Assembly (NCBI GenBank): GCA_026396385.1
Contig: JAPLWV010000051.1
Span: 26,143 to 90,142, forward strand
Length of the DNA: 64,000 bases
DNA from: Candidatus Micrarchaeota archaeon
GTDB lineage: Archaea; Micrarchaeota; Micrarchaeia; Burarchaeales; Fermentimicrarchaeaceae
Direction of reading: 5' to 3'
In this document: positions 5,629 through 30,610 of the stretch, one piece after another
Numbering within the stretch: the stretch's first letter is position 1
Layout of the letters: each line of letters begins with the position of its first letter
The notes under the pieces: generated by a model
What the model was told of the DNA's origin: nothing
The model's input: the letters and a program-made list of their open reading frames with translations, nothing else
Database searches by the model: none
Position numbers and translations under genes: made by a program

Positions 5629-7875
5629 CTATGTTCTAACGAAGGATATTTCTATTTTCTCTATGAGCACACCAAGAGTCCGGAGGTCTGCTGTAAAGTT
5701 AGAGTAGTCCGCGGGCACCCACGTGTTGCTGTAAAATGAAAGTGTGGTGAGTTGGTGGGATTTGTATTTTTTCACATCAAAATGCAACTCTTCAAACTGA
5801 GTCTTGTTCAGGGTTAGATTTTCGAGTTGTAAATCGTTTATCTGGATTGTGAAGTTCAACTGGACTTCCTTCGGGCTACGATCTGCGAGCGTGATGTTGA
5901 TGTCCTTTACCACCCATCTCCCCGGTAGGCTTATGGATGCGTTTCCGTTTGTCCATCTGGATTTTCTACCCCCGACATTTTCAAGGTCATGAAAGCCCGT
6001 TGCCGAGAACAAATCGAGAGAATCACTCATTTCTATTGTAATTGCAGAGCAGTTCTCCCCGCATAGTATCGACTCGTCATGGTATCCACTCACAACCACG
6101 AAAGTTTCATTATCCTTTTTTTCAGTTACGTTATACTCAAAGAATGGGTATATATTCTTCTTTATCCAATTCGCCCACTCGGGATGCCAATCCATACTGT
6201 GCAGGTAGATTGTTCTGTTGTTCTGGAGTCCGTAATCCATAACTGCAAATACGGAAGATTTACTATCTATATGTGCCGCAGCAATCCAAACATCCTTAGA
6301 TGCTTTCAAGGGCACCATTCTAAATGCGCTTGGTCCATATGAGATGATTACGCTTCTGCCATCAATGATTGAATCCGCCTTCGTTAATAAGTTGAGCGCA
6401 AGCGAACGGACAGAACTTTCATAGATAGAAAATTCAAATACGTAGTTTATTAGGAAAGAGACAGGTATGGATAGTAAGACGATTAATAGCAGTAGTATTG
6501 CGACGTATCTCCCCAACTCACGCCTCTTTGTTAACAAGAAAATTATGGAGAGGAGAGAAATCGATATGGCGAACAAAGTTAGCTCTTCTAGCACGTGCGC
6601 TTCCGAATCTCTGAAATCGTTGTACCAGTCTTGCATGTACGGAGGAAGCAGATTTAGGAAAAGGATTCCGCTTATGAGGATAACGGCAAATGTGGAGTTC
6701 TGCATTCTCGGAAAATTGAGGTTAATAAGTTTATTTGATACTCTAATTATTTCAGCCAAGGATATCACGGACAATACCACTAGTGGTGGAATCGCCTCAA
6801 GGAGATAGCGAGTGTTGTGGATTGGTCCTCCGTGGTGCGTGTGGGTGGTGTAATATAAAATCTGCATTATGGGTATCCCGCATAGGACGAGAAGGTAATC
6901 GAATTTCTTATCCTCCCACAGCTTATTAGCACCAATGAGGCATATTGAGAGGAAGGGGGATGACTGTAGAAGGGCTTTTGTTAGACCGTCAGCATACACT
7001 GTTGATTGCATAGCTATCCCATCCACATTTGTGAATGATTGCGTGTCGAATATGTATTTGTAGAGGATTTGTAGGTGCATCAGAATTCCACTGAAAAAAC
7101 CATGAGAGTATACCCCGATTGCGGTTTCACTATTTACGTAGGAGGGAGTGTAGCCTGTAGAGAATGGATTTCCGAAACGTATTATGTTCGATATTGCGAG
7201 CAGGAAAAGGGCAGGTAAGGTGGAGAGGAAGGAAATCAGGGATTTGTAATTCTTCGCTATAACTAGGATTATGAGGGGTAAGAAAAACATGGCATTTGTG
7301 TACCTTATTCCGATTGAGAGAGCCAGTATGAATGCAGAGATGGCCGTGTCCCAGTACGTGACTCTCTCTTTAAGCAATAAGTAGAACGGCGCTAAAACTA
7401 AGAGAGCGGACAGCATGTGCGGCCATATGGCAGTTGCATATTGCGGGGAGAATGTGCAGAAAGAGAATATTAGAATCGCAGCTATCCCCCACCGGTCTCG
7501 GTACTTCAGCCCGTGCATAACTGAATAAATAATCCAAAGAATCGCAGAGAACGAGAGGGTATTCAGGAGGAAAAGCCCGCGTAGACCGAATAATGCAAAG
7601 AATGGATAGGCCATGAATCCATAGTTGCCGGGGAATGAGGGGTAAAGATTATCGTTGTTTGTCCACCAAGGGAATATATATATGCTTCTGAATTTCAGTG
7701 CTGGATAGCCATTCTCGACGTTGAATCCCTGTGGCAATTGACTGGCCTGGAGAAAGTAGCTTGCCTCATCAATCATGTATAAGCCAGGAACGGTTTTTAT
7801 TACGAATAGCAATGTGATGGCGAGGATTAGGAATTTTATGCGAAAGTCTATTTTCTTAGTTTCTTGCAGACGCAT
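5629..7875 (-). CDS. polytopic GT-C superfamily glycosyltransferase, PMT_2 / GT39-GT83-like (748 aa)
   Basis: At least 12 predicted TM helices. The first extracytoplasmic loop carries YMIDEASY (the DE motif of PMT/ArnT-type GT-C enzymes). About 270 aa of C-terminal soluble domain. Confidence 0.6.
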   Translation of the reverse strand: MRLQETKKIDFRIKFLILAITLLFVIKTVPGLYMIDEASYFLQASQLPQGFNVENGYPALKFRSIYIFPWWTNNDNLYPSFPGNYGFMAYPFFALFGLRGLFLLNTLSFSAILWIIYSVMHGLKYRDRWGIAAILIFSFCTFSPQYATAIWPHMLSALLVLAPFYLLLKERVTYWDTAISAFILALSIGIRYTNAMFFLPLIILVIAKNYKSLISFLSTLPALFLLAISNIIRFGNPFSTGYTPSYVNSETAIGVYSHGFFSGILMHLQILYKYIFDTQSFTNVDGIAMQSTVYADGLTKALLQSSPFLSICLIGANKLWEDKKFDYLLVLCGIPIMQILYYTTHTHHGGPIHNTRYLLEAIPPLVVLSVISLAEIIRVSNKLINLNFPRMQNSTFAVILISGILFLNLLPPYMQDWYNDFRDSEAHVLEELTLFAISISLLSIIFLLTKRRELGRYVAILLLLIVLLSIPVSFLINYVFEFSIYESSVRSLALNLLTKADSIIDGRSVIISYGPSAFRMVPLKASKDVWIAAAHIDSKSSVFAVMDYGLQNNRTIYLHSMDWHPEWANWIKKNIYPFFEYNVTEKKDNETFVVVSGYHDESILCGENCSAITIEMSDSLDLFSATGFHDLENVGGRKSRWTNGNASISLPGRWVVKDINITLADRSPKEVQLNFTIQINDLQLENLTLNKTQFEELHFDVKKYKSHQLTTLSFYSNTWVPADYSNFTADLRTLGVLIEKIEISFVRT

Positions 7876-7885
7876 CGTATCTCCC

Positions 7886-10414
7886 TCATGGCGATTTTTT
7901 TATTGATATCTCTTCTATTATGGTTCCAAGCTCCCGCATGTCGCCATTCTTGATGAATTTTTCGGGTATCCAAGGTTCTGATTGTATCAGAAGTTCGGAG
8001 TATGGTCCGGTGGTACATTCCGCTGATATTTGTAGAATATTATCACCATCTGTCAAATTGCTTGAGAGAAGGCACTTGTTGAAGTAAACGGAGATATTCA
8101 TTGGTGCGTTTAGTGGTTTTTTGGAGTTGTCTATTCTAATGCGCAATGTATAGTCTGAATCCGCAGGTGTCGGGAAGGTAATGTGTGCATTCTTCATCGT
8201 CCACCTGAACTCCCTTCCGTCCGATGAAGTCTCGCAACTGAAGAACCCTGTGATGTAGGGGTAGTGGGAGGGACAGAAGTGGATAGTAATCTCGCCCTCC
8301 TGCAGGGCGACATCGGAACTTGTTACTTCGAATAAATCGTAAGATATCTTTCGCTGGGTTATGTTTTGCGGGAACCCGTACTGGGTTCCTTCCCCCATGA
8401 GAGGTACTTCTATTCCTTTACTTTCTTTGTAATTGAGGAACAAGCCAAAGTTTATCAACTTGTCAGCCAGGTTGTCAGAGGGATTTAGAACATATATCTT
8501 ATGGTCCTCGCTCTGCCACTTTTTGAACTGATTCCCGATAGCGGAGTAGTTGTGGTTGTATACAATGAGTGACTTCCTATCGAATATGTAGTTTAGAGGT
8601 GCGGATAATTTCAGGGATTGCCAGTTATACTTGTCAAATACCAATATAGAATTATTTTCCGTGGAGTTTGAGATTCCCTGGATGTAGTTAATCATCCCCT
8701 CATACTCGACATGGTTGAGGAGAGGGTAATTTGGTTGGATAGATAACAGTGTTAGAATCCCTAAGAGGATCCAGAAAATTATTTTTCCAAGAGGTTTCTC
8801 TTTGAAGGAGAGTTTGGATACGGATTCCGCGAGGTATGCAATGCATACCAGAATGAACGGTATTACGACAGGCACGAACCTCCTTATCCACCACGGTTGA
8901 TCGGCATACATTTTGGCGTTTGCTATGAAATAAACCGAATAGATAAGCATAACTCCGAGGAATAAGTACGTTTCGTTGTATGGTTTTTTGTAGAGAAGGA
9001 GGATTGAGCCGCACACGGCCAGTATTATTCCGATGGGGCCTGCTACGTACCAAGAGATTTTAACCATGTTGTACGTATCCACTATCCCTTCCGTGGGTCT
9101 TATGAAGAACGAGTAGAGTATCGCTGTGATGATGAGAAAAGCTACAAGGTACTGTAGGTATGGTAAAAGCTTCCTGAATCCTTTCAATTTTTTTGATATT
9201 TGGCTTCGGAAAAAATCAAACACAAAAAGAATTAAGAAGGTAAGTAGAATGAGAATCGCGAATAGATGAGGTTGTTCGATTAGGGCTGACTCATAGCTGA
9301 AGGTTACCCGGAATATGTCATATGTGTAGGGGGTGGATACCGCCAAAGCAGTGAGGAACGCAGAGATGAACAGAACTGAAAAAGGAATAATGAAGTAGAG
9401 ATATTCCATTTTCAATTTCTCCTTTATCCTGAGATATACGAAGAAGAGGAAAAGCGGAGCGGCGAGCAGAAATGCGTCAATTCTCGTCAAGAAGATTCCA
9501 CCCAAGCACATTGCTGAAATTATTCCGAAGTATTTGTTATGAGTTCTGTTGAATAAGATAAACAGAGCCAACCCACTGAATGTTAGCAGTTGGGTGAAAA
9601 CCTCGGTACTTGGCTCGCGGGCGTACCATATTTCGGCGAAGTTCAGGATTAATAGGAACGTGGAAAGCAGAGCAACTTTATCGTTGAATAACAGTTTTAT
9701 TAAGAAGAAAACGCTCAGCACAGCCAGAATTGCGAAAATGGGTGTTATGTAAAGGCTTGATTCCAGACCGAATAGCGAGTAGAGTATTGCTATCCAAGTG
9801 GGGTACAAGTATAAGAACTGCGGAGTTATCTCCCCCCTGTCTTTATCTGTGATATAGAAGCCCAGGTACTGGAGGCCTTGGTGGTAGGATTTGTTCAGGA
9901 TTTCTACTCTTTTCTCCATTATATAGAAAACATCTCTTGAGGAATCATTCATATCACTCAAAATTGGATCGTTGATAACCACCGAGCCGGTTTTTGCAAT
10001 GTTCGCCCCCGTATTAACATAAACTCCTTGGTCCCGCCCCCCGACTATCCACTCGTACGGCTTGAGGAACAAAGACGACGCAAGAAGAAGGAGGATTATC
10101 AGCAGGATTGAGGTAGAAGTTAAGGCGGGTTTTTGGAATAAATTCGTATCGAACCGACCATACGATTTAATAGCGAGTGGTATGCTCACCAAGAGCAGCA
10201 GCACGGTAAGGTTCGGGATGGAGAAGAAGCCCAGTTCAGCTAGAATCAGCCCCAACCACCCCGAGAGAATTATGTTGCCTAGAAGGATTGAAAGAACTGT
10301 TTCAAGAAATCCGAGCTTTAATTTTTTATTATGGAATGCGCAGTATAGCAAGAAACCTGGAATTAAGAAAATCAATAGTGATACGGGCAGAAGAAAGGCA
10401 GTTGAAACATCCAT
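7886..10414 (-). CDS. large polytopic membrane protein, probable GT-C glycosyltransferase (842 aa)
   Basis: Many TM helices in the first ~560 aa. Acidic first loop GGRDQGVY. About 280 aa of C-terminal soluble region rich in N-x-S/T. Adjacent to other glycosylation genes. Confidence 0.5.
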   Translation of the reverse strand: MDVSTAFLLPVSLLIFLIPGFLLYCAFHNKKLKLGFLETVLSILLGNIILSGWLGLILAELGFFSIPNLTVLLLLVSIPLAIKSYGRFDTNLFQKPALTSTSILLIILLLLASSLFLKPYEWIVGGRDQGVYVNTGANIAKTGSVVINDPILSDMNDSSRDVFYIMEKRVEILNKSYHQGLQYLGFYITDKDRGEITPQFLYLYPTWIAILYSLFGLESSLYITPIFAILAVLSVFFLIKLLFNDKVALLSTFLLILNFAEIWYAREPSTEVFTQLLTFSGLALFILFNRTHNKYFGIISAMCLGGIFLTRIDAFLLAAPLFLFFVYLRIKEKLKMEYLYFIIPFSVLFISAFLTALAVSTPYTYDIFRVTFSYESALIEQPHLFAILILLTFLILFVFDFFRSQISKKLKGFRKLLPYLQYLVAFLIITAILYSFFIRPTEGIVDTYNMVKISWYVAGPIGIILAVCGSILLLYKKPYNETYLFLGVMLIYSVYFIANAKMYADQPWWIRRFVPVVIPFILVCIAYLAESVSKLSFKEKPLGKIIFWILLGILTLLSIQPNYPLLNHVEYEGMINYIQGISNSTENNSILVFDKYNWQSLKLSAPLNYIFDRKSLIVYNHNYSAIGNQFKKWQSEDHKIYVLNPSDNLADKLINFGLFLNYKESKGIEVPLMGEGTQYGFPQNITQRKISYDLFEVTSSDVALQEGEITIHFCPSHYPYITGFFSCETSSDGREFRWTMKNAHITFPTPADSDYTLRIRIDNSKKPLNAPMNISVYFNKCLLSSNLTDGDNILQISAECTTGPYSELLIQSEPWIPEKFIKNGDMRELGTIIEEISIKKSP

Positions 10415-10484
10415 CGGCTCACGACAAGTTTGTATTTATCATCTTATATCAAAGTTTAAATTCTTAACTATTGATATCCTTATT

Positions 10485-11420
10485 GTGAAGCTGGCTATTG
10501 TTATACCCGCACACAACGAGGAGAAAACCATAGGCAAAGTCATCCGCGAGATCCCGAGGAGGATACCGGAAATTAAGGAAGTGGAAGTGATAGTGGTTGA
10601 TGACGGCTCCACGGATAGAACGGTCTCTGAAGCACTCAAGGCTGGAGCGGATAGATTCGTACAGCATAAGGTAAACAAAGGTTTGGCAGTCTCTTTCAGG
10701 GATGGATTGGATGCCGCTTTGGAGAGCGGGGCAGACATCATAGTGAACACAGATGGAGATTTCCAGTACAACCAAGGGGAGATTCCAACGTTGATAAAAC
10801 CTATAATGGATGGAAAGGCGGACTTGGTGCTGACTGACAGAAATGTTTGGAACCTGCGGCATATGCCCGTGAGTAAAAAGATCGGAAATAAGATCGCAAC
10901 TTATATTGTTAGGTTCCTGGCAGGTTTCCCAGTAAAAGATGCGCAGAGCGGTTTTAGAGCTTACTCGAGAGAAACGGCCTTGCAACTGAATATTCTTTCC
11001 GATTATACCTATGTTCAAGAGATGATAATACAGGCAGTATTCAAGAAAATGAAGATAGCGCAGGTTCCTTGCGATTTCAGGGCGAGAGAGGGGGAAAGTA
11101 GGCTTATCAGTAACATCTGGTCATATGCGAAAAGAGCGGGGTTGACAATTGTTCTGACTTACGTTCATTACAAGCCATTGAAAATTTTCTTGAGCATTGG
11201 ATTGTTTTTGATGCTGTTGGGCTCGGTTCTCGGACTGAGAGTGCTGATCCATTACCTCTCAACTGGCTTAGTTAGTCCGTATATCCCGACGGCAATCCTG
11301 ACTGCCATCCTGTTGATAGTGGGATTTCAGGTTTTAATGATGGGTCTGGTAGCGGATTCTATTAACGCCAACCGAAGGATTATGGAGAAGATCTTGTATT
11401 TAATGAAAAGAAACAAGTGA
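10485..11420 (+). CDS. GT2 glycosyltransferase, dolichol-phosphate sugar synthase-like, C-terminal TM anchor
   Basis: IVIPAHNEEKTIGKVI, VVDDGSTDRT and NTDGDFQ (DxD) motifs, then 2 TM helices. The ORF track start at 10062 overlaps the convergent 842-aa gene. The first in-frame start after that gene ends is GTG at 10485. Confidence 0.75.
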   Translation: MKLAIVIPAHNEEKTIGKVIREIPRRIPEIKEVEVIVVDDGSTDRTVSEALKAGADRFVQHKVNKGLAVSFRDGLDAALESGADIIVNTDGDFQYNQGEIPTLIKPIMDGKADLVLTDRNVWNLRHMPVSKKIGNKIATYIVRFLAGFPVKDAQSGFRAYSRETALQLNILSDYTYVQEMIIQAVFKKMKIAQVPCDFRAREGESRLISNIWSYAKRAGLTIVLTYVHYKPLKIFLSIGLFLMLLGSVLGLRVLIHYLSTGLVSPYIPTAILTAILLIVGFQVLMMGLVADSINANRRIMEKILYLMKRNK

Positions 11421-21574: not shown

Positions 21575-22111
21575 TTGTTAGTTTGTTTGTTTATTCTTGG
21601 ATGTTTTGGGGCATCCAATACTCCTCAAGGTAATACCCCCCCCCAAGATGCTAAATCAAAACAATATGAACAATTGAATAAAGATTTGCAAACGTATAAT
21701 ACGATCCTTCAGGGTGATAGCGACAAACTCGGAACTTTAAATATGGAAGGAAATGCAATAATTTCAAGGTATAATAATGCAACGACTAAACAAGATCGTT
21801 ATACTGCTTTTAGTGATTATCTGACGTGGGCGCAAAAGTATGCGAATCACGTTGAACTGATGGATAAACATCTCGCCGATTATGAAGACTATCTATCCGA
21901 TAATAAAGCACTATTAGATGAAGGAAAAGTGAATACTATACAACTGGAAAGTTCTATTGGCGATAGTAGGATTGCACTTAAACAAAGTGCTCAACAAGTA
22001 AAAACCAATATTGAAAGTATGAAGGCAACGATAGAAATGGAGCAAAAAATAGAACAGCAAAAACAAGACTTAATTATGAACATTCTAAGGATATTGATCG
22101 GCTTAAGTTAA
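21575..22111 (+). CDS. hypothetical secreted/lipobox protein
   Basis: Hydrophobic N-terminus LVCLFILGC followed by a polar coiled region. AT-rich codon usage unlike its neighbours. Start is TTG (no ATG available). Confidence 0.45.
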   Translation: MLVCLFILGCFGASNTPQGNTPPQDAKSKQYEQLNKDLQTYNTILQGDSDKLGTLNMEGNAIISRYNNATTKQDRYTAFSDYLTWAQKYANHVELMDKHLADYEDYLSDNKALLDEGKVNTIQLESSIGDSRIALKQSAQQVKTNIESMKATIEMEQKIEQQKQDLIMNILRILIGLS

Positions 22112-22211: not shown

Positions 22212-25200
22212 TTAGTATATTTTTATGGTTTTGGAGTTTACTGCTTCGCTGTTGCCTACGTTGTCGGTGCTATTGTATGTTATATAGCTCGTCCCTTTGG
22301 TTGAAACATAGATTTTGATGAGTCCTTTGTATGAGTCGTTTATTTCGGTTGCTGATAACGCCCTGTTGAATATCTTCACTTCGTCTATTGTGCCGTTAAA
22401 CCAACCACTATTCCCCCTTGCACAACCGATATATGGGGTATAGATAAGACTTGCGACACCTCCGAGGGCTAATGAATTTGAAGTTACATAAGCCCCGTTT
22501 TCCCATAAGGAGAAGTTATTGCCATCCCTCACCCCGCATACATGAAGCCATACATTATTTGTGACTGAATTACCACGCAAATCAATCGCATAACCATACA
22601 TATCCCTTACATGAAACCTAGTCACATAATTCCCGCTAGTATTCATTAATTGTATCGAATAGGATTCCCCGATTGATGTCGAATTTGTTTTGGCGAATAT
22701 TACAAAGGTCGTACTACTGTCTTGCGGAAGATTGGTTGGATATACCCAAGCACAAATGCTAAAGTTACCAGAACCGAAATTAAAGAGAGAGGAATTCGTG
22801 ATATTCACAAGGTCATTCTTCCCGTCAAAACTCAACGCAGGTCCGTATTTGCCTCCTGTCCAGGTTGCACCACTGATGGTTCCGGTATTCCCATTCCCGC
22901 TTGAGTCGTTTGCTGTGGTTCCTGTCCCTTCGTTGAGATTCCAGTAAGCCCGTAGATTGGATATGTCAGCAATCTGCTGAGATGTTAGGGCGGTGCCGTA
23001 TATCTTCACATCGTCTATCGTGCCGTAGATCACACTCCCTCCTTGCTGTCTTCCTATGTAGAATTTGGCAATGCTTGGCCGGATTGCTGAAATTGCCTGC
23101 GGGCTACCGCTCTGAACACCATCAATATAGATTATCGCATGCGTCCCATTCCATACTGCAGCAATGTGGTGCCAGTTGGTGTCTATTGTTGCTGTGGAAG
23201 TGGCTGATATTGTTGCGCTATCATCGGATTTTCTCAGTGTGAATGATATGGTGTTACCAGTGTTTTGGTTGATTGCATAACTGCGTTGTCCAGCAGCGGC
23301 ATTCCATCTGCTGAGTATTGTCCTTGCACTTGTCAAACTTGTGTTTGATGTCTTGAACCAGAGAGAGATGGTCATAGCTGTGAAATCCCTTAAAATAGTT
23401 GAATTGCCACAATAGACATTGTTAGTGGATAAACCATTAAAGCGCAATGCATTTCCGTATTTGCCTCCTGTCCAGGTTGCACCACTGATGGTTCCGGTAT
23501 TCCCATTCCCGCTTGAGTCGTTTGCTGTGGTTCCTGTCCCTTCGTTGAGATTCCAATAACCAAGTAACGAATAGTTGTACATATTAGCAATTTCGGTTGC
23601 TGATAACGCCCTGTTGAATATCTTCACATCATCTATCGTGCCATTGAACAAAGTGCCGCTTGCTGTGTTTCTACCTATATAAGTAGTAGTTATCGACGAT
23701 TGCAGATTGCTGAATGCTACTATATTATTTGTTTGGAGGATGCCATTAAGATATGTGTATATGTGCGTTCCATTCCAAACCCCAACGATATGATACCAAC
23801 TATTTGTTGCAGTTATGGCAGAATCTATACAGGAAGTAGCCCATACTGCATCGCTTATATTTCTTGTCATAAAGCAGAATTTGTTTGCTGTGTCCTGAAC
23901 TATCTGATATGAACGTTGTCCAGCAACAGAATTAGCTCGTGCAACTATCGCCTTTGCTGAAGCATAATTCAATTGTGCAGGATTTATCCATACACTAATC
24001 GTCATAGCAGTAAAATTCCGCAAAATAGTTGCATTCCCAACATTCACGTAACTACTTCCATTAAAACTCAATGCATTTCCAATCCTCCCTGATGTCCAAC
24101 TTGCGCCTATGATGGTTCCGGTATTTCCATTCCCGCTTGAGTCGTTTGCTGTGGTTCCTGTCCCTTCGTTGAGATTCCACAGGCCTACTAGACCGCTTTC
24201 TGTGGAAATTGTTGGCGTGCATAAGTTGCTTGTATCTATGCAATAGTGGGTTATTGCACAGCCGCTTGTTGCATCTGTGCAGAGTAAGGTCACGTTGACA
24301 TAGGAAGAGTTAGTCCATGTGTTTTCTGTGTAATTTGAGCCGTCGCTCTCTACTAAGGATGCAGAAGTTGAAGGTGGTGTTTTATCAAAAATTACTGAAC
24401 TCGAGTCAGTTGTGCTGGTCACCCGTACTCCGGAGATATATGAATGACTTATGAAATCAATTGTGAAATTCACTGTCCCTTCGCTATCACCGGGAGCCAT
24501 TGTATAAGTTGCCGTATAAGAATTCCCTCCAGTGCTGGATACCGAAGCTGTATGACCTGCGATTTTAACAACAGGGTTATTGGACAATGCTTTGTCTGCG
24601 GTAGATGAAAGATTTATGCTGTTACCTACTTTCGCCTTGCTTGAGTCAGAGTTGTTTGATTTTATTTTGACAGAGGTTAGCACAGGTGGAACCACGTCAT
24701 CTCCGAAAAAATGAACTCTCATGCTTAGGCCTTTGGCACTGTTTACAAAAACTGAAACCTGTGTATTATTCCCCCAGTTGTCAATTGAGCTCGGAGTTGT
24801 CGTATCGTTGAAATATTGTTTTGCGGCATTACTCGAGTAAGCAGCATCTGTAACATCCAATACGTATTCAGGCACAATTCCCTTTTGTACGCAAGCGTTT
24901 ATTGTATTGTTTGTCCTGCTGCATGGAACATGCCCGTATATGTACCAGTTGTCTATATGCCATATGACAGTTCCCTCACCTGGGATATACGCATCAAATC
25001 CAACTTTTTCTCTATTCTCTACTATATAATACTCTTTATCAACATTCAGAATTGAATTGTTGATGATAAACGCTTGGCTTTTATTCTCAAGATTTTTCAC
25101 GTAATATGAGATGGGGTTACCGGTCAGCTGGGTTGCCTTTAACCATCCCAGGTCTATCTTGCACCAGGCGCTCATATGAGTTGGAACAGTGCCGTCATAG

Positions 25201-26240
25201 CTTGGACCTCCCCATGAACCACCATCCATAAGGTCCCAAGTATCGACTACCCAATCTCCAGAATATGTATTATACAAATCAGGCAGACCTAAATCATGCC
25301 CAAACTCATGCGCAAAAACTCCGGTTTTACCGTACTCGGGGTCCATTGTGTATAGGTATACTCTTTTGCCGTCAACCAGCTGACCTCCGGGAATAACCCA
25401 GCTGTGGGACCATATGCTTGTATCTGGGGGGTAGCCTTCCTCCTGCCCATGACCGCTATGGATTATTATGACGTGATCCGCATAGCCATCACTATCCGTA
25501 TCATAATCTGCAAAATTAACATTTGGATTTGCCAGCAGGATCGCCTCTCTTGTAAGCTCATAAATATAGACTGGCCAATTCGGCCCCGGTTGACCAGTAT
25601 CTATATATCCATACCCATCAGTTGCGTAGTACTCCACTGGGTGACTGCTTGTATACCAGCCAAGCACAGTGCCTGTCAGGTTTAGCTTGCCATAGGATAC
25701 TTCATTGTAATAACTCGTTAGGCTAAGTGGGTTGGATGCATTGAACAGCAAATTCTGAAAATACGCTGTATCATGGGACGGATCATGAGCCTGGTTAGTA
25801 AACTGTATGAGGATAACTACCACTTTATGGGTGCCTGTTGGCGGAGGAGCATATTGAGGCTGATCTTCCATAGACGCCCTTCTAGTTGTTGGAACAGGAA
25901 TGTCACTTTCTATTGAAAGTTTGGAAGAGTCAATGGCTTTGAAAATGCTTTTATGTATACCTATTGATTGAGGTGACACATGACCGACTCTCAAATCAAC
26001 GGACTGGTTCAAGAGTTCATTTTGTGTGACGTATGTCCACCATTCACCAGTTTTTTGGATAGCATAGCCAGTTTCAGTTTCATACCAGTATCCATTCTCA
26101 TCGCCTCTTAGATAGCCCTTGAATGTTGTATTGTCTGGTTGTTGGAATTCATGTAGGATGGGTCTGGCTGGTACTGCGTAGCAGATACCTGATAACAAAA
26201 ATATTGAAATGAGTATAGTCAGCTCAGTTAGTTTTCTCAT
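22212..26240 (-). CDS. secreted M6-family (immune inhibitor A-like) zinc metalloprotease with three C-terminal LamG / concanavalin-A-like lectin repeats
   Basis: Signal peptide MRKLTELTILISIFLLSGICYA. Zinc site VFAHEFGHDLGLPDLY (HExxHxxGxxD of M6/InhA). Three repeats, each about 205 aa, beginning WNLNEGTGTTANDSSGNGNTGTI.GA.WT and ending GTIDDVKI(F/Y). Start taken at the second ATG (26240). Confidence 0.75.
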   Translation of the reverse strand: MRKLTELTILISIFLLSGICYAVPARPILHEFQQPDNTTFKGYLRGDENGYWYETETGYAIQKTGEWWTYVTQNELLNQSVDLRVGHVSPQSIGIHKSIFKAIDSSKLSIESDIPVPTTRRASMEDQPQYAPPPTGTHKVVVILIQFTNQAHDPSHDTAYFQNLLFNASNPLSLTSYYNEVSYGKLNLTGTVLGWYTSSHPVEYYATDGYGYIDTGQPGPNWPVYIYELTREAILLANPNVNFADYDTDSDGYADHVIIIHSGHGQEEGYPPDTSIWSHSWVIPGGQLVDGKRVYLYTMDPEYGKTGVFAHEFGHDLGLPDLYNTYSGDWVVDTWDLMDGGSWGGPSYDGTVPTHMSAWCKIDLGWLKATQLTGNPISYYVKNLENKSQAFIINNSILNVDKEYYIVENREKVGFDAYIPGEGTVIWHIDNWYIYGHVPCSRTNNTINACVQKGIVPEYVLDVTDAAYSSNAAKQYFNDTTTPSSIDNWGNNTQVSVFVNSAKGLSMRVHFFGDDVVPPVLTSVKIKSNNSDSSKAKVGNSINLSSTADKALSNNPVVKIAGHTASVSSTGGNSYTATYTMAPGDSEGTVNFTIDFISHSYISGVRVTSTTDSSSVIFDKTPPSTSASLVESDGSNYTENTWTNSSYVNVTLLCTDATSGCAITHYCIDTSNLCTPTISTESGLVGLWNLNEGTGTTANDSSGNGNTGTIIGASWTSGRIGNALSFNGSSYVNVGNATILRNFTAMTISVWINPAQLNYASAKAIVARANSVAGQRSYQIVQDTANKFCFMTRNISDAVWATSCIDSAITATNSWYHIVGVWNGTHIYTYLNGILQTNNIVAFSNLQSSITTTYIGRNTASGTLFNGTIDDVKIFNRALSATEIANMYNYSLLGYWNLNEGTGTTANDSSGNGNTGTISGATWTGGKYGNALRFNGLSTNNVYCGNSTILRDFTAMTISLWFKTSNTSLTSARTILSRWNAAAGQRSYAINQNTGNTISFTLRKSDDSATISATSTATIDTNWHHIAAVWNGTHAIIYIDGVQSGSPQAISAIRPSIAKFYIGRQQGGSVIYGTIDDVKIYGTALTSQQIADISNLRAYWNLNEGTGTTANDSSGNGNTGTISGATWTGGKYGPALSFDGKNDLVNITNSSLFNFGSGNFSICAWVYPTNLPQDSSTTFVIFAKTNSTSIGESYSIQLMNTSGNYVTRFHVRDMYGYAIDLRGNSVTNNVWLHVCGVRDGNNFSLWENGAYVTSNSLALGGVASLIYTPYIGCARGNSGWFNGTIDEVKIFNRALSATEINDSYKGLIKIYVSTKGTSYITYNSTDNVGNSEAVNSKTIKIY
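22843..22943. repeat. about 101-bp coding-sequence repeat, copy 3 (LamG repeat head)
   Basis: Identical to 23454-23554 over about 101 nt (ccgtatttgcctcctgtccaggttgcaccactgatggttccggtattcccattcccgcttgagtcgtttgctgtggttcctgtcccttcgttgagattcca). Confidence 0.8.
23454..23554. repeat. about 101-bp coding-sequence repeat, copy 2
   Basis: See copy 3; offset 611 bp. Confidence 0.8.
24111..24179. repeat. about 69-bp coding-sequence repeat, copy 1 (1 mismatch)
   Basis: gatggttccggtatttccattcccgcttgagtcgtttgctgtggttcctgtcccttcgttgagattcca; offset 625 bp from copy 2. Confidence 0.75.
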
Positions 26241-26667
26241 ATTGATACACCATCCTTTCTCCTTTACTAATCGAGACATTTGCTTGAATTATATCACCGA
26301 CGGCAATTCCAGATAGATTTACATCTGTATTACTTGGACCCAGTGGCGGCATATCTACGGTAGTAGCTGATGTTCCCCATTGAAATACGAAATTGTTGAT
26401 ATCGCTTTTTTCCAATTTTATCGTGCCATCGCGTTTATCTGAATCATAAGAGATAAGGTCCAGAATCTCAAGCCTTGCGCTTTGCGTTTGAACATTCAAA
26501 ACTCTCGCCCTAATAACTGCCGAATCAGTAAGTGGTTTTGGAGGTATGACTTCTGTTGAATCGTTAGATCCCGTAGTACTATTTGGGTTAATTGTATTTG
26601 GCGAAAGTGACTCTTTAGTAATACAGCCTGAAAAAAATAGGATTGCACAGACTAGTGAAACCAGCAA
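26224..26667 (-). CDS. hypothetical lipobox/secreted protein
   Basis: N-terminal MLVSLVCAILFFSGC hydrophobic segment ending in a lipobox-like SGC. Ser/Thr/Asn-rich linker. Confidence 0.5.
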   Translation of the reverse strand: MLVSLVCAILFFSGCITKESLSPNTINPNSTTGSNDSTEVIPPKPLTDSAVIRARVLNVQTQSARLEILDLISYDSDKRDGTIKLEKSDINNFVFQWGTSATTVDMPPLGPSNTDVNLSGIAVGDIIQANVSISKGERMVYQYEKTN

Positions 26668-27318: not shown

Positions 27319-27915
27319 CTACTCTATGAACTTATCAATAACTTTCCCGCCACTTTGGTTGAGAATCAGTTTTATCAAGTAGTCTGCATTGAGTGAGCTC
27401 CATCTTACTACCCAAACCGAGGGGTATGTGGAGTTTGTTTTTGGCTCAAAGTAGTTATCGTAGAATGCAGCATCAACTCTGACATTTGAATAACCAAAGT
27501 TGTTCACAAACGAGTCAACTTCCGAAACATTGTTGAGTTTGTGCGAAGCAATAATCGCTTCCTCGGGCATGGTTATTTTGCAGACTGGTATATCCTTGCA
27601 CCCAAGCAACTGGCAGTCTTGGGTTATGTTGTTCTGGTCCCTTGGGACAAAGCCGAATTTGGGGTATTCGTATACAACAATTGATAAATCCGGGCAGGGA
27701 GTGTTTGCTCCATAGATTACCTTTGAAGTCATCTTCCAGCTCCCATCCTGCGAAGCCACATTGAAAACATCTGTGGTAGACCCAGGGTACTGCACCTGCA
27801 TGTGCTCCTTGACAAGCGCCACAGCTTTGTCCTGTGTCATCTGCTCGTTCGGCTGGGTACATCCAGAGAGTAGTAAGAATAGGGCAACTACTATGAAAGG
27901 ATATTCTGGTCGCAT
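27319..27915 (-). CDS. hypothetical lipobox/secreted protein
   Basis: MRPEYPFIVVALFLLLSGCTQ signal/lipobox; 198 aa; several Cys. Confidence 0.5.
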   Translation of the reverse strand: MRPEYPFIVVALFLLLSGCTQPNEQMTQDKAVALVKEHMQVQYPGSTTDVFNVASQDGSWKMTSKVIYGANTPCPDLSIVVYEYPKFGFVPRDQNNITQDCQLLGCKDIPVCKITMPEEAIIASHKLNNVSEVDSFVNNFGYSNVRVDAAFYDNYFEPKTNSTYPSVWVVRWSSLNADYLIKLILNQSGGKVIDKFIE

Positions 27916-27960: not shown

Positions 27961-29661
27961 TCAGCTGGCAGTTGGGTTCGTAACTCTTCCTATGAATAGG
28001 ATGTTACCGGTATCCCTCTGCTGTATGATGAAGATGAATGGGTGGTCTGCTCTGAATACCGGCTTTGGAGTTGCGGGTATGGCCGTCATAGCCATGATTA
28101 CGGCAGTTGCTGCAGCTGCTTCTGTTCCAGTCTCATTCACCTCAATAAATGCCTGGTGTATGACATTGCTGATATACAGGTTTCTCGTTCCATCCATGCC
28201 GGAAAAGTCCGCTTCGTTTGGATCAAACGCCTTTTCGATTCCCATATTCTTTAGGGTGTCAACCATGAGGTACTTAGTCTCAAACTTAAATCTAGGCATA
28301 TAAACACCGGCAAGCTCTGTTTCGCTTAGCATAGCCTTCAATTCATTTAAGTTGTCTGTAGTGAGTGACTGTTCAAGATCCTGCAGATTGTCTTCTTTTG
28401 GAAGAATTATGAGCATGGATACATCATCACCTTGGTAAGGCAGCTCAAGAATTTGAGTTTCGTTTGTTTCTGCGTAATTGAATCTCAGGGGAACTGACTC
28501 GCCATCAGATGTCTTCACATAGTCGCCGTCCAGAGACATCATCTTAACTTTTACGGTCTTTGTTGGGGTTACTCTAAAGTCTTGGTCAGTAGTATCGTTT
28601 AAAAACGGTATAAGCCAGTGCGCTTTGAAATAGACCGCGTTTGTAAGAACCAAACGAGTCAACTCGTCGATGGCTCCCGGCGGTATTATATCTTTAATTT
28701 TGTTGTTTGTCTGTCCCTCCACCCATTGGTTTATAGTCACGCGGGAGTTTTCGGTATCACCCTTAAAGTCGAGATTTGTCACATTTCCGCCGTAATATTC
28801 GTCTACTAAACTGAAATAATCGTCTAAGAACTTGTAATCCTTCTGCGCCCATAATGCATTTGCAGTGCTGAGGTTGTATTCTTTGTCTTTCTTGTTTATC
28901 TCATTGTAAACTCCTGCGAAACCTAGTCTTCGTGTATTATTATCCGGGGGGAAATGAAAAACAGCTTGCATTTCTTCTGCTGTTTGGCCTCTTGCACCCT
29001 CATAGGTCATTGCCAACGCAGTTGAGATGCTGTAGGGAGAGAATAACAGATTGTCATTCTGGAACTTGTACTGCGAGTAGAGGTCAAATGCAAACTGATT
29101 GTTAGCGTTTACTACATTGTTTACGGCTTCTGTGATTGTTGCGTTATTGGGAGATGAAGATGTATTTACGCATTTGAGTTTATCGCTATCCCAGCATCTT
29201 CCCTCTCCGCAATCGCAAGCTTTCACTTCATGGCTGTTGCTTGGGGAGCAACCGCAGGCTCCTATGAGGCAGGTATTCGGGAAATCACCAACCGAATTGC
29301 AGCATAGGTGAGTTGTAACATTTCCACCCCCCATCCTACATTGATTTTCGGTATACCAGCTTCTGTTAAACCCAATGCTCTCGCAGAACCCTTCGGACTG
29401 GCAGCTGATTGAACTGCAAGCCGCGCATGGCGGGCATACCACGCACTGGCTGGGGCATTTATCAACAGAATAATTCTGGCAGTTGGTTACATTTGGGCAG
29501 GGAGCAAATTCGCAATTTGGACCGACTCTCCCAACAGATGAGCCGTCAGGGCAAACCTTGGCTTCTTCCGTGCATGCTCTAGGTGGGTTTATCTGCGTGC
29601 ATCCAGCCCACAAGAATAAAGTTGCAACAAACAATAGAACTATGAGAGTTTTTGTTTTCAT
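27961..29661 (-). CDS. serpin (serine protease inhibitor) with about 150-aa Cys-rich N-terminal domain and lipobox signal
   Basis: Serpin blocks FSPYSISTALAMTYEGARGQTAEEM, NAVYFKAHW, hinge/RCL ETGTEAAAATAVIMAMTAIP, FRADHPFIFIIQQ and FIGRVTNP. Signal MKTKTLIVLLFVATLFLWAGC. Residues about 20-165 contain about 30 Cys. Start moved to ATG at 29661; the 44 upstream codons lack signal-peptide features. Confidence 0.85.
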   Translation of the reverse strand: MKTKTLIVLLFVATLFLWAGCTQINPPRACTEEAKVCPDGSSVGRVGPNCEFAPCPNVTNCQNYSVDKCPSQCVVCPPCAACSSISCQSEGFCESIGFNRSWYTENQCRMGGGNVTTHLCCNSVGDFPNTCLIGACGCSPSNSHEVKACDCGEGRCWDSDKLKCVNTSSSPNNATITEAVNNVVNANNQFAFDLYSQYKFQNDNLLFSPYSISTALAMTYEGARGQTAEEMQAVFHFPPDNNTRRLGFAGVYNEINKKDKEYNLSTANALWAQKDYKFLDDYFSLVDEYYGGNVTNLDFKGDTENSRVTINQWVEGQTNNKIKDIIPPGAIDELTRLVLTNAVYFKAHWLIPFLNDTTDQDFRVTPTKTVKVKMMSLDGDYVKTSDGESVPLRFNYAETNETQILELPYQGDDVSMLIILPKEDNLQDLEQSLTTDNLNELKAMLSETELAGVYMPRFKFETKYLMVDTLKNMGIEKAFDPNEADFSGMDGTRNLYISNVIHQAFIEVNETGTEAAAATAVIMAMTAIPATPKPVFRADHPFIFIIQQRDTGNILFIGRVTNPTAS

Positions 29662-29719
29662 GTTTATGGTATTATAAAAAGAACTTAAAAATGTTCCCAA
29701 TTTGTTCGGTGAAAACCGA

Positions 29720-30610
29720 TCAAAAATTATTTTTGAGCCTTTCAACTGCCTCTTTCCATGTTGGGACGTTCGTCTGCGCTCCATGCTTTTCAACTATGAA
29801 TGAGGACACAGATGACGCAACTTTCGCGCACATTTTCAAATCCTCGCCTCTCAGAAATGCTGAAAGGAAGGCTGCCCTGAAAGAATCCCCTGCGCCTGTC
29901 GGGTCGACAAACCTAGCCTTCACTGCAGGCACATCAAAACTCCCATCTCTTGTGGTGACAGAACTGCCTTTTGCTCCTTTTGTCGTTATGATGTATTCAA
30001 CAGGGAACGCGAAAAGCTCCTCCTTGCTTCTCATTCTAAGAAGCGTGAGAATTCTCCGCATCTCAAACTCATTGCATGTGAGGAACTTTGTGTTTTTTAG
30101 GACTCCTTCAAGCTCTTTCTTTCCATAGGCAATTATGTCATAGCCCGGGTCGAAAGAAACCCCGGGATATTTTTTGGCTATCCTCATGCTGAAATCAGGG
30201 TCGCCATTCGCCAGGTGCACAATATCGTTTTTCCCCATTTTCAATTTTGGGACTGGTGCCCTGTGGAAAAGCTCGGCAACTCCCCAGTAGAAGAATGACA
30301 TCTGCCTATGCCTGGAGTCATTGAACATGAATGCCCTTGGGGTTTGGCCACCTTTCACGATTTTCAGGTGAATTAGATCAACCTTGTTGAGCCTGAGATG
30401 TCTTTCATAGCCAGAACCTCTGAAATCCCCGCCAACGAACGAGATTAGAGATGTCTTCTGACCAAGCTTCGAGCATACAGCTGAAAAATTTCCTGCAGCC
30501 CCTCCAAAAAGCTCGAAGTATCTTTTTATGTATGTGGTGGAGTTCGGCTTTGGAAATTCCTTCACTTCGCCTATGTTATCATAGACAACCTGTCCGACAG
30601 AGTATATCAT
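29720..30610 (-). CDS. PfkB-family (ribokinase-like) carbohydrate/nucleoside kinase
   Basis: C-terminal DPTGAGDSFRAAF (DTxGAGD anion-hole motif); N-terminal GG sugar-binding motif region. Confidence 0.75.
   Translation of the reverse strand: MIYSVGQVVYDNIGEVKEFPKPNSTTYIKRYFELFGGAAGNFSAVCSKLGQKTSLISFVGGDFRGSGYERHLRLNKVDLIHLKIVKGGQTPRAFMFNDSRHRQMSFFYWGVAELFHRAPVPKLKMGKNDIVHLANGDPDFSMRIAKKYPGVSFDPGYDIIAYGKKELEGVLKNTKFLTCNEFEMRRILTLLRMRSKEELFAFPVEYIITTKGAKGSSVTTRDGSFDVPAVKARFVDPTGAGDSFRAAFLSAFLRGEDLKMCAKVASSVSSFIVEKHGAQTNVPTWKEAVERLKNNF

Follow-up and report, generated by a model that had tools for sequence, protein, structure and literature searches.

The serpin gene described here lies in the window, the 64,000-nucleotide stretch of Candidatus Micrarchaeota DNA that we analysed, and encodes a protein in which the serpin domain is preceded by a Cys-rich stretch composed of three separate, mobile mini-modules with 4, 8, and 10 cysteines. 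We consider it moderately probable that this lipoprotein of the Micrarchaeota (DPANN) is a surface-anchored suicide inhibitor of serine proteases, borne on an exchangeable cassette of autonomous disulfide modules. The protein is already in the NCBI database, where an entry of 100% identity (P0121) is named "serpin family protein" of Candidatus Micrarchaeota archaeon. The features of the gene, with their positions in the window, are as follows.

27961 to 29661, minus strand: complete serpin coding sequence, 566 aa plus stop, with an ATG start; lipoprotein type with an N-terminal Cys-module cassette.
29599 to 29661, minus strand: signal peptide and lipobox-like motif, aa 1-21 (MKTKTLIVLLFVATLFLWAG followed by C21), as read from the sequence.
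29494 to 29577, minus strand: module M1, aa 29-56 (ACTEEAKVCPDGSSVGRVGPNCEFAPCP), 4 Cys; no Pfam or PDB relative.
29353 to 29484, minus strand: module M2, aa 60-103 (NCQNYSVDKCPSQCVVCPPCAACSSISCQSEGFCESIGFNRSWY), 8 Cys; no PDB relative and no Pfam match.
29164 to 29349, minus strand: module M3, aa 105-166 (ENQCRMGGGNVTTHLCCNSVGDFPNTCLIGACGCSPSNSHEVKACDCGEGRCWDSDKLKCVN), 10 Cys.
29107 to 29163, minus strand: linker rich in Asn, Ser, and Thr, aa 167-185; two N-x-S/T sequons, at N173 and, on the boundary with M3, at N166.
27973 to 29106, minus strand: serpin domain (PF00079), aa 186-563, no Cys.

The original prediction described an N-terminal domain of about 150 residues and about 30 cysteines. 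A Cys-rich extension is indeed present (aa 22-166, about 145 residues), but it consists of three modules rather than a single domain and contains 22 cysteines rather than about 30. All 23 cysteines of the whole protein are confined to aa 21-164, namely the lipobox Cys21 and the 22 of the mature N-terminal part. The N-terminal part has 22 cysteines among 143 residues, whereas the serpin part has none among 381, and the pattern is therefore not a product of chance. The CxxC and CPxC spacings that had been noted are present (CPSQCVVCPPCAACSSISC), and the cysteines of M2 are arranged as C-x3-C-x2-C-x2-C-x2-C-x4-C-x5-C. The even number of cysteines in each module fits an arrangement of 2, 4, and 5 disulfides, which M1, M2, and M3, respectively, would be expected to contain. 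Lake sediment is the source of at least one close relative; we assume this habitat to be low in oxygen, and extracellular disulfides are not guaranteed to form in such a setting. Structure prediction of the N-terminal part, proposed earlier as a check, gave an AlphaFold model of the three modules that was only moderate (pLDDT 69.8), with the linker at about 50, whereas M3 alone was modeled confidently (pLDDT 91.7; AlphaFold2, without ligands).

A search for the Cys pattern in other proteins, which had also been suggested, showed that the modules are widespread, with matches in 6513 cluster representatives at E≤1e-3 and at least 856 at E≤1e-10. The retrieved proteins contained 365 distinct instances of M1, with up to 10-11 tandem copies in one protein, and 30 distinct instances of M2; the invariant D, G, and R positions of M1 are partly imposed by the regular expression that collected its instances. 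Alignments of the cut-out modules and of the whole N-terminal region with MAFFT stacked unrelated modules and were discarded, and whole collinear proteins were aligned instead. Among 243 module-bearing proteins examined, 97 were composed of modules only, 60 had modules C-terminal to another domain, and 203 had an N-terminal hydrophobic stretch. Modules placed at the C-termini of other proteins are a poor fit to a simple membrane stalk. Stand-alone proteins with named sources as far apart as DPANN archaea and a eukaryote transcriptome share 60-75% identity in M3; the conservation of M3 includes non-Cys positions such as FPNTCLIGACGCSP, and His, Asp, and Glu residues are conserved near its cysteines. 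The modules are also found in Nannocystaceae and Labilithrix, and the neighbourhoods of two stand-alone M3 genes had no recurring theme. Relatives carry the arrangements M1-M2-M3, M1-M2-M4-M3, M1-M4-M3, M1-M4, and M1-M1.

The exchange of modules can be followed at a single chromosomal slot, which is bounded by the PfkB gene and by the following neighbour.

27319 to 27915, minus strand: 198-aa lipoprotein (LLLSGC), downstream neighbour of the variable slot; no Pfam match.

This lipoprotein has 23 homologues, all from Micrarchaeota, and is adjacent to the slot in all syntenic loci. The slot is empty in L016, holds M1-M4-M3 alone as a module-only lipoprotein in L001-L003, M1-M4-serpin in L006 and L017, M1-M2*-M4-M3-serpin in L004, and M1-M2-M3-serpin in the window, L007, and L008. 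Since these modules also make up secreted proteins by themselves, and the slot is occupied in a relative by a lipoprotein of modules only, the cassette is not specific to the serpin but is a self-contained unit that can be exchanged and that is taken from a large pool of mobile extracellular Cys modules. Serpins trap serine (and some cysteine) proteases. The neighbouring M6 metallopeptidase was considered as a functional partner and rejected, as none of the five syntenic relatives has it and serpins do not usually target metallopeptidases; scanning the window for the catalytic motifs of subtilisin, trypsin, and HtrA revealed no serine protease that could be a candidate target.

One could envisage that the modules are a passive spacer, that is, a rigid, protease-resistant, glycosylated stalk that binds nothing. 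The lipid anchor and the serpin flank the cassette, the linkers between modules carry sequons, the weak Foldseek matches that were obtained are strings of EGF, TNFR, or VWF-type modules, and orthologues vary freely in the number and type of modules while retaining the serpin, as would be expected if only length and stiffness mattered. However, the 97 module-only proteins and the 60 with C-terminal modules, together with the module-only lipoprotein in the orthologous slot of a relative, are at odds with this idea, and the identity of M3, extending to non-Cys positions, exceeds the constraint that a spacer would need. We regard the stalk as unlikely.

The original prediction had called the architecture unrecognised and had raised a second inhibitor module as one possibility. 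The architecture did prove to be unannotated. The N-terminal 182 aa matched no Pfam family at E≤1 (Kazal, pacifastin, antistasin, TIL, WAP, and EGF were considered), NCBIfam had no match for the architecture, profile searches of PDB sequences with M1, M2, and M3 returned either nothing or chance "CPDGS" strings, and fold searches gave no significant match of the modules to any solved structure. Pfam searches with the module-only proteins P0001, P0032, and P0241 likewise gave no relevant match. These results weigh against the proposal that at least one of M1-M3 is a tight-binding (Laskowski-type) protease inhibitor, so that one protein would combine two mechanisms. The proposal draws on the company that the modules keep: Kazal_1 scores above the gathering threshold beside M2/M1 in P0355 and P0366, antistasin is found beside M1 in P0361 (46.9 bits), M1 repeats in myxobacterial proteins follow pacifastin-like stretches that score below threshold, and a related Altiarchaeota serpin with M1 modules (P0171) is fused to a Kazal-like module, which scores 21.6 bits (cut-off 21) and matches a genuine Kazal domain in BLASTP at 5e-15. 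The large number of module-only proteins also argues that the modules are functional by themselves. Yet an inhibitor domain occurs in just about 11 of 102 scanned module proteins, several of these being below threshold. In addition, column entropies gave no clear signal, in that no single hypervariable position was seen in an otherwise invariant disulfide-bounded loop, and the long M3 loop (DFPNTCLIGACGCSP) hardly varies, in contrast to the reactive sites of canonical inhibitors. A second inhibitory mechanism in the cassette thus seems rather improbable.

We hold at a similarly low level of expectation a broader proposal, that M1-M3, together with M4 and other companions, are the first members of new, widespread families of autonomous Cys-knot modules that are extracellular and occur in DPANN archaea, CPR bacteria, and myxobacteria, that the M3 fold has no solved relative, and that at least one module represents a new inhibitor class or a host-surface ligand. 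If so, the protein would be a two-mechanism or host-targeted inhibitor, and the locus would be a hot spot for the shuffling of surface modules by symbionts engaged in an arms race.

That the C-terminal part is a full-length serpin, as first stated, is clear from the Pfam match to PF00079, which spans aa 186-563 and positions 2-370 of the 370-position profile (404 bits against a cut-off of 27, E=9e-121). The domain matched 177 PDB serpin chains at E≤1e-30; the closest solved chains were 8gxv_A (E=1.9e-82) and human SERPINB1 (4ga7_A), which places it near the inhibitory clade-B serpins. Prokaryotic serpins had been called rare, and this does not hold for the present clade: 7423 of 8000 scored serpin candidates reached E≤1e-20, so that such proteins are common in this part of the tree, and the named top matches were from Micrarchaeota, Aenigmarchaeota, Woesearchaeota, Altiarchaeota, Patescibacteria, and Omnitrophota. 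The reactive-centre loop comprises two features.

28057 to 28134, minus strand: reactive-centre loop, aa 510-535, with the hinge E510-T-G-T-E-A-A-A-A518 as P17-P9.
28081 to 28086, minus strand: predicted P1 Thr526 and P1' Ala527, with Met525 at P2, counted from P15 Gly512.

The GTEAAAATAV hinge (aa 512-521) is of the inhibitory type, as had been proposed. The consensus for inhibitory hinges at P17-P9 is ExGTEAAAA (PMC8233489), and ETGTEAAAA conforms to it, with small residues at P12-P9, Thr at P14 (where Thr or Ser is expected), and Thr in place of E/K/R at P16. Of the 120 nearest homologues, 116 have this hinge; the P1 region, in contrast, is variable. The alignment with SERPINB1 agrees in the hinge (P15-P9) and so fixes the register, from which P1 is probably Thr526 and P1' Ala527, with Met at the predicted P2 and P4; the primed side up to the F-x-ADHPF motif is 9 residues long, within the range of 6-12 seen in homologues. 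Thr is unusual at P1, and the true scissile bond may therefore be shifted by one residue. Because of the hinge type and the loop length, a loop-inserting suicide inhibitor is predicted. Its likely enzyme targets would be subtilisin-, elastase-, or chymotrypsin-like.

The loop also has features that could be taken to indicate a non-inhibitory serpin that serves, as ovalbumin or maspin does, in binding or as a chaperone: the predicted P1 Thr, which is Gly in orthologues, is atypical, P16 departs from the usual residues, and an N-x-T sequon (N509) is located at the base of the hinge. Against this, P15-P9 is GTEAAAA, with neither Pro nor charge at P12-P9, in agreement with the inhibitory consensus, the top solved relatives are inhibitory serpins, and the loop varies among orthologues on a conserved scaffold, as it does under the target-driven selection of inhibitory serpins. 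We therefore judge loss of inhibitory function to be very unlikely.

The Cys-rich extension had been placed behind a lipobox signal, and this was borne out in that the N-terminus (MKTKTLIVLLFVATLFLWAGC) resembles a signal peptide ending in a lipobox-like LWAGC; both elements are kept among orthologues, where the motif reads LLSGC, LLAGC, or LWAGC. The archaeal lipobox is described as Leu, Val, or Ile at −3, Ala, Ser, Thr, Val, or Ile at −2, Gly, Ala, or Ser at −1, and Cys at +1, and DPANN in general are reported to have archaeal lipoproteins and AliA, the enzyme of lipidation (PMC12462473). The W-A-G-C of the window protein fits at −2, −1, and +1, but the Trp at −3 is outside the strict set, whereas the orthologues with L-S-G-C and L-A-G-C have Leu there. 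The wider PROSITE lipobox pattern permits Trp at −3. The protein has 12 N-x-S/T sequons compared with 6.3±2.2 expected from shuffling, and their positions are conserved among orthologues. The hydrophobic N-terminal signal, the excess of sequons, and the reports of lipoproteins and AliA in DPANN together point to a surface location.

Alternatively, the dense cysteines might be ligands of metal ions or of an Fe-S cluster instead of forming disulfides. The CxxCxxCxxC run in M2 (C-x3-C-x2-C-x2-C-x2-C-x4-C), the conserved His, Asp, and Glu of M3, and the lake-sediment origin of a close relative could be read in this way. However, no Fer4 or metallothionein match was found in Pfam at E≤1, and the M2 spacing differs from CxxCxxCxxxCP, the ferredoxin motif. 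No twin-arginine motif was found when the signal peptide was read, which argues for export as an unfolded protein through Sec. Moreover, the cysteine counts per module are even, Nannocystaceae and Labilithrix, which have the same modules, are aerobic myxobacteria, and AlphaFold2 folded M3 confidently with no ligand supplied. A metal-binding or redox role is thus highly doubtful, and disulfides are the preferred interpretation of the cassette.

A later start, downstream of the Cys-rich segment, had been named as an outcome that would overturn the prediction, but the data did not bear this out. Relative to the orthologue L004, substitutions at the three codon positions numbered 20/17/61 in the N-terminal part and 62/44/173 in the serpin part, and amino-acid identity was 78% in the Cys-rich extension and 76% in the serpin part. 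An alignment of seven orthologous upstream regions revealed conserved blocks and non-triplet indels upstream of the ATG.

29662 to 29719, minus strand: non-coding region between the PfkB and serpin genes, with conserved CCrAACAAAy and CTTTTAA (TATA/BRE-like) about 25-45 nt before the ATG.

These blocks probably constitute an archaeal promoter. Judging from a codon-position bias like that of the serpin and from the promoter-like element directly 5' of the ATG, the Cys-rich part is translated. Some relatives were shortened by gene callers (P0132, 398 aa; P0128, 462 aa), and P0125 has lost one M2 cysteine; the "serpin-only" allele that P0132 seemed to represent was rejected as a gene-calling truncation, and the upstream ORF of the "truncated" relative L017 is intact, with the signal, M1, and M4. 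Although such shortened entries and the missing cysteine might suggest an annotation artefact or a decaying fusion, that reading is practically untenable and is already contradicted by the sequences at hand, because the third-position excess equals that of the serpin part, all 22 mature-part cysteines are kept in 88%-identical orthologues, the sole signal peptide is upstream of the modules, the promoter-like block directly precedes the ATG, and the L017 ORF is open.

The favored reading, a surface-anchored suicide inhibitor, can be pictured as follows. A Sec-type signal peptide would direct export, and Cys21 of LWAGC would be lipidated to anchor the N-terminus, both steps being predicted from the sequence. 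M1, M2, and M3 would fold independently, braced by disulfides and separated by sequon-bearing segments, and would be followed by the flexible Asn/Ser/Thr linker and the serpin, which would trap serine proteases by loop insertion after cleavage at or next to Thr526-Ala527. The likely role would be to shield the cell envelope of a small-genome archaeon from proteases secreted by the host or community. Least firmly of all, we suggest that the cassette is a protease-resistant tether or a targeting (binding) part that displays the serpin.

Serpins of DPANN and CPR are numerous in metagenomes and have not been studied; a full-text literature search for serpins with DPANN or Micrarchaeota found no relevant paper, and a comprehensive serpin phylogeny contains no discussion of domain fusions. 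In one Micrarchaeota clade, the serpin appears to reach the cell surface on a small Cys-module cassette, the modules of which are swapped between close relatives at a fixed chromosomal slot. The modules occur in at least 856 protein clusters (E≤1e-10), yet have no Pfam or PDB counterpart. Should they bind the host or envelope, or inhibit proteases, they would provide a useful way into the question of how ultra-small symbionts shield and decorate the cell surface. In practical terms the gain is more modest, amounting to three or four new domain families to define; M3, a 62-residue domain that was modeled with confidence and lacks a known relative by fold, is a tractable one.

The literature searched contained no description of a Cys-module cassette ahead of a serpin, but several known systems share parts of the arrangement. 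Mosaics with Kazal, antistasin, and pacifastin units (prokaryotic P0355, P0366, and P0361) are likewise secreted proteins built of shuffled short disulfide modules, although M1-M3 match none of these units by profile or fold search. The cellulosomal serpins of Clostridia and Ruminococcus, which the literature lists among the dockerin-bearing components of cellulosomes, also combine a serpin with a small non-catalytic module and an extracellular placement; dockerin, however, is a Ca-binding helical module with cohesin as its partner, whereas M1-M3 are built on disulfides, are not homologous to dockerin, and have no partner that is known. C1-inhibitor and heparin cofactor II have a glycosylated non-serpin region of about 100 aa before the serpin body. 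In those proteins the extension is mucin-like or acidic and for the most part lacks structure, whereas that of the window protein consists of three compact modules (M3 pLDDT 91.7).

The archaeal Tk-serpin, Pnserpin, and aeropin have an inhibitory hinge like that of the window serpin, but they are single-domain proteins of thermophiles, whereas the window serpin is multi-module and belongs to a DPANN archaeon. Aeropin, moreover, has disulfides inside the serpin body, in contrast to the Cys-free body of the window serpin, in which all cysteines are in the N-terminal part. Miropin of Tannerella forsythia is a lipoprotein. Tk-serpin and Pnserpin were reported to inhibit subtilisin- and chymotrypsin-like proteases (PMC8233489), and the membrane-anchored prokaryotic serpins represented by miropin share with the window protein the inhibitory hinge ExGTEAAAA, an N-terminal export signal, and predicted tethering (Spence et al. 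2021, PMC8233489). The window protein differs from them in that a three-module Cys cassette, about 145 aa long, separates the serpin from the anchor.

The serpin gene lies among archaeal genes (ABCE1/RLI, diphthamide synthase, class II aminoacyl-tRNA synthetase, Prok-JAB), and its product is identical to P0121, an NCBI entry named 'serpin family protein [Candidatus Micrarchaeota archaeon]'.

29661 (ATG) to 27961, minus strand: ORF, serpin CDS, 566 aa

The longest possible ORF extends to a TTG at 29793, into the PfkB kinase gene (29720-30610). When seven orthologous upstream regions were aligned, CCrAACAAAy and CTTTTAA blocks separated by single-base indels were conserved about 25-45 nt 5' of the ATG; this stretch resembles a non-coding promoter, and may carry an archaeal BRE/TATA element.

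Residues 186-563 form a complete Pfam serpin domain (E=9e-121, profile 2-370 of 370), the nearest solved chains being 8gxv_A (bacterial 'proteinase inhibitor I4 serpin', E=1.9e-82) and human SERPINB1 (4ga7_A). The hinge is of the inhibitory type, as originally predicted: E510-T-G-T-E-A-A-A-A518 fits the P17-P9 ExGTEAAAA taken as the mark of inhibitory serpins by Spence et al. (PMC8233489), with Thr at P16 as the sole departure. Counting from P15 Gly512 gives a predicted P1 of Thr526, in agreement with the location first proposed, followed by P1' Ala527 and preceded by P2 Met525 and P4 Met523. Of the 120 nearest homologues, 116 retain the hinge, with variable residues at P8-P1 and on the primed side (commonest predicted P1: T 39, G 24, S 13, K 10). 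This is the usual inhibitory-serpin pattern, and the protein is predicted to inhibit a protease. No serine protease gene was picked up in the window by motif scanning. In this clade the hinge reads NETGTEAAAA versus NEEGTEAAAA in most relatives, so that Thr at P16 creates an N-glycosylation sequon (N509-E-T, 28129-28137, minus strand) at the base of the hinge, and glycosylation of N509, if present, could affect loop insertion.

All 23 cysteines of the protein (not about 30, an over-count in the original prediction) lie within residues 21-164, and the serpin part has none; this contrast (22 Cys per 143 residues versus 0 per 381) is genuine. The objection raised earlier, that translation might start downstream of the Cys-rich segment, is contradicted by purifying selection, by retention of the cysteines and by the sole signal peptide, which is upstream of the modules. 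Against the orthologue at locus L004, the N-terminal part shows 20, 17 and 61 substitutions at codon positions 1, 2 and 3 (78% amino acid identity over 143 aligned codons) and the serpin part 62, 44 and 173 (76% identity), a similar pattern indicating that both are under similar purifying selection. P0122 and P0123, orthologues with 88% identity, retain all cysteines. These comparisons show that the Cys-rich part is translated. In the L004 protein (P0125, gene 6001-7818), Tyr replaces the second Cys of the second module (DKYPSQC), and given the resulting odd Cys count this module may be decaying.

The first 185 residues gave no Pfam or NCBIfam match, even at E<=1. Residues 21-182 as a query matched 360 proteins, with no serpin among them, and reading these proteins and classifying their Cys-spacing patterns resolved the supposed single domain of about 150 residues into three separate modules (M1-M3), a further one (M4) being present in relatives.

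M1, aa 29-56, 4 Cys: CTxEAKxCPDGSxVGRxGPxCEFAPCP
M2, aa 60-103, 8 Cys: CxxxSVDxCPxxCVVCPPCxxCSSISCQxEEFCxSIGFNRxWY
M3, aa 105-166, 10 Cys: CxxSGGTVxTxxCCxSxxDFPNTCLIGACGCSPxNSHEVKxCxCGEGxCxDxxxC
M4, absent from the window protein: CxCPxGYxxxGDxCNPxCYYSTPxCLxPSIxC

The even Cys counts of M1-M3 (4, 8 and 10) are as expected of fully disulfide-bonded modules. Every module also occurs singly; M1 can be repeated in tandem up to 10-11 times, and M3 is found in 2-4 tandem copies or as the one module of small proteins (about 90 aa) that otherwise have just a membrane or signal segment at the N-terminus. An exhaustive phmmer search of 1.84 billion cluster representatives returned 6513 matches at E<=1e-3, 856 at E<=1e-10 and 14 at E<=1e-30, of which only the E<=1e-10 set was deemed safe because of the Cys-rich composition. 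Among 243 module-bearing proteins examined, 203 have an N-terminal hydrophobic segment, 97 are made up entirely of modules, 60 have modules C-terminal to another domain, and 31 share the arrangement of the window protein, in which a larger domain follows N-proximal modules. The named sources include Aenigmarchaeota, Campbellbacteria, Peregrinibacteria, Nannocystaceae, Labilithrix and one MMETSP eukaryote transcriptome; the M3-type modules in this last protein (P0066, from a marine microbial eukaryote) could reflect contamination or a wider distribution. Five mosaic proteins (P0171, a 768-aa Altiarchaeota serpin, and P0355, P0366, P0118 and P0219) share further recurrent mobile mini-modules: IGGDRDAHGCLxAAGYSWNxSxxxCMRxWSGE, FxECVxAGYPVMESYPRRCxTPDGxxFTE, and a Kazal-like variant with a 9-residue insert. 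In P0171 the latter lies C-terminal to the serpin, with DUF333 (Kazal_1 21.6 bits, cut-off 21; BLASTP 5e-15 to a genuine Kazal domain).

AlphaFold2 gave a moderate model of residues 22-185 (52 collinear relatives aligned; pLDDT 69.8, pTM 0.41) with short beta-hairpins and helices, and a confident one of M3 alone (57 sequences; pLDDT 91.7, pTM 0.70, 5/5 models >=90), in which one short helix and a small beta-sheet ring a long, nearly invariant loop. Profile searches of PDB sequences with M1, M2 and M3 were empty or at chance level. M3 is thus modelled as a compact domain without a detectable solved relative, which is suggestive, not proof, of a new fold for these 62 residues.

Most of the 102 larger module proteins scanned have no Pfam domain, and protease-related domains are prominent among those that do: Pacifastin_I in six (below gathering score in those checked), Kazal in three (over threshold in P0355 and P0366), Antistasin in two (46.9 bits in P0361) and M10 matrixin in one (P0261), beside META, DUF5667, DUF6438, DUF333, SIMPL and cupredoxin. 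These raw counts hint at a shared theme of extracellular proteolysis. M1-M3 themselves showed neither homology to inhibitor families nor a hypervariable reactive-site column. The module-only and C-terminal occurrences count against a purely passive stalk, and the near-invariant M3 loop favours a conserved ligand or structural role.

The gene order common to relatives is aaRS, CTP-transferase, diphthamide synthase, amidohydrolase, JAB, PfkB, a variable slot, a 197/198-aa lipoprotein, (BacA) and RLI. The slot is occupied as follows.

Empty: Ca. Fermentimicrarchaeum limneticum Sv326 (L016)
M1-M4-M3, 164-aa lipoprotein without serpin (P0004): L001-L003
M1-M4-serpin: L006, L017
M1-M2*-M4-M3-serpin, 605 aa: L004
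M1-M2-M3-serpin: window, L007, L008 (Lake Pavin sediment MAG)

On this comparison the locus is a module-shuffling hot spot. The serpin-less variants show that, in one relative or more, the cassette is a gene product in its own right, and the set of variants marks the serpin-module junction as a clean domain boundary. P0132 (398 aa, L017 3363-4961), seemingly a serpin only, is a gene-calling truncation, its ORF running upstream through M4, M1 and a signal peptide; P0128 (462 aa), which starts inside M3, is probably also truncated. P0124 has an extra N-terminal Cys module, and the more distant serpins P0140, P0148 and P0171 carry M1-M1. The following genes lie on the downstream side of the slot.

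27319-27915, minus strand: 198-aa lipoprotein (LLLSGC), immediately downstream of the serpin gene
26224-26667, minus strand: 147-aa lipoprotein, overlapping and preceding the M6 gene
22212-26279, minus strand: 1355-aa M6 'immune inhibitor A'-type metallopeptidase with three Laminin_G_3 stretches
21575-22111, plus strand: 178-aa coiled-coil ORF flanking the M6 gene

The 198-aa lipoprotein, which has no Pfam match and only 23 homologues, every one from Micrarchaeota, adjoins the slot regardless of its content (serpin fusion, gene for Cys modules alone, or empty). The M6 block between it and RLI occurs only in the window genome and is missing from five syntenic relatives, and so looks like an insertion beside the slot. 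In L016 (CP058998.1), IS605 OrfB/Cas12f-like (TnpB-type) and ParE-type toxin genes (1191-2366 and 9879-10594) are no more than a few kb from the empty slot, and ParE toxins are near the slot in L007 too; mobile elements may contribute to the region's variability.

We propose that the protein would be exported by Sec and then lipidated at Cys21, the lipobox being slightly atypical (Trp at -3); AliA-type machinery has been reported for DPANN (PMC12462473). Eleven disulfides, all intramodule, would form, and the protein would be N-glycosylated. Its mature form contains 12 N-x-S/T sequons, where shuffled sequences would have 6.3+-2.2 (p about 0.015), and their positions are conserved across the orthologues; this fits a glycosylated surface protein. 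The displayed serpin would trap serine proteases by loop insertion once cleaved near Thr526, with the cassette as a protease-resistant tether and perhaps also a binding unit.

A full-text literature search returned no relevant paper tying serpins to DPANN or Micrarchaeota, and we found no description of such a Cys-module cassette on a serpin, of M1-M3 themselves (which have no Pfam or PDB counterpart) or of module exchange at a fixed locus. Demonstration that a module acts as an inhibitor or as a host ligand would make the finding more interesting. Some eukaryotic serpins have a glycosylated N-terminal extension, and cellulosomal serpins are known to be fused to a targeting module. Membrane-anchored prokaryotic serpins are already a known class (PMC8233489), and the window serpin is predicted to be surface-anchored. 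Because it is a serpin by every testable criterion, we regard it as a variant within a known kind, not as categorically new.
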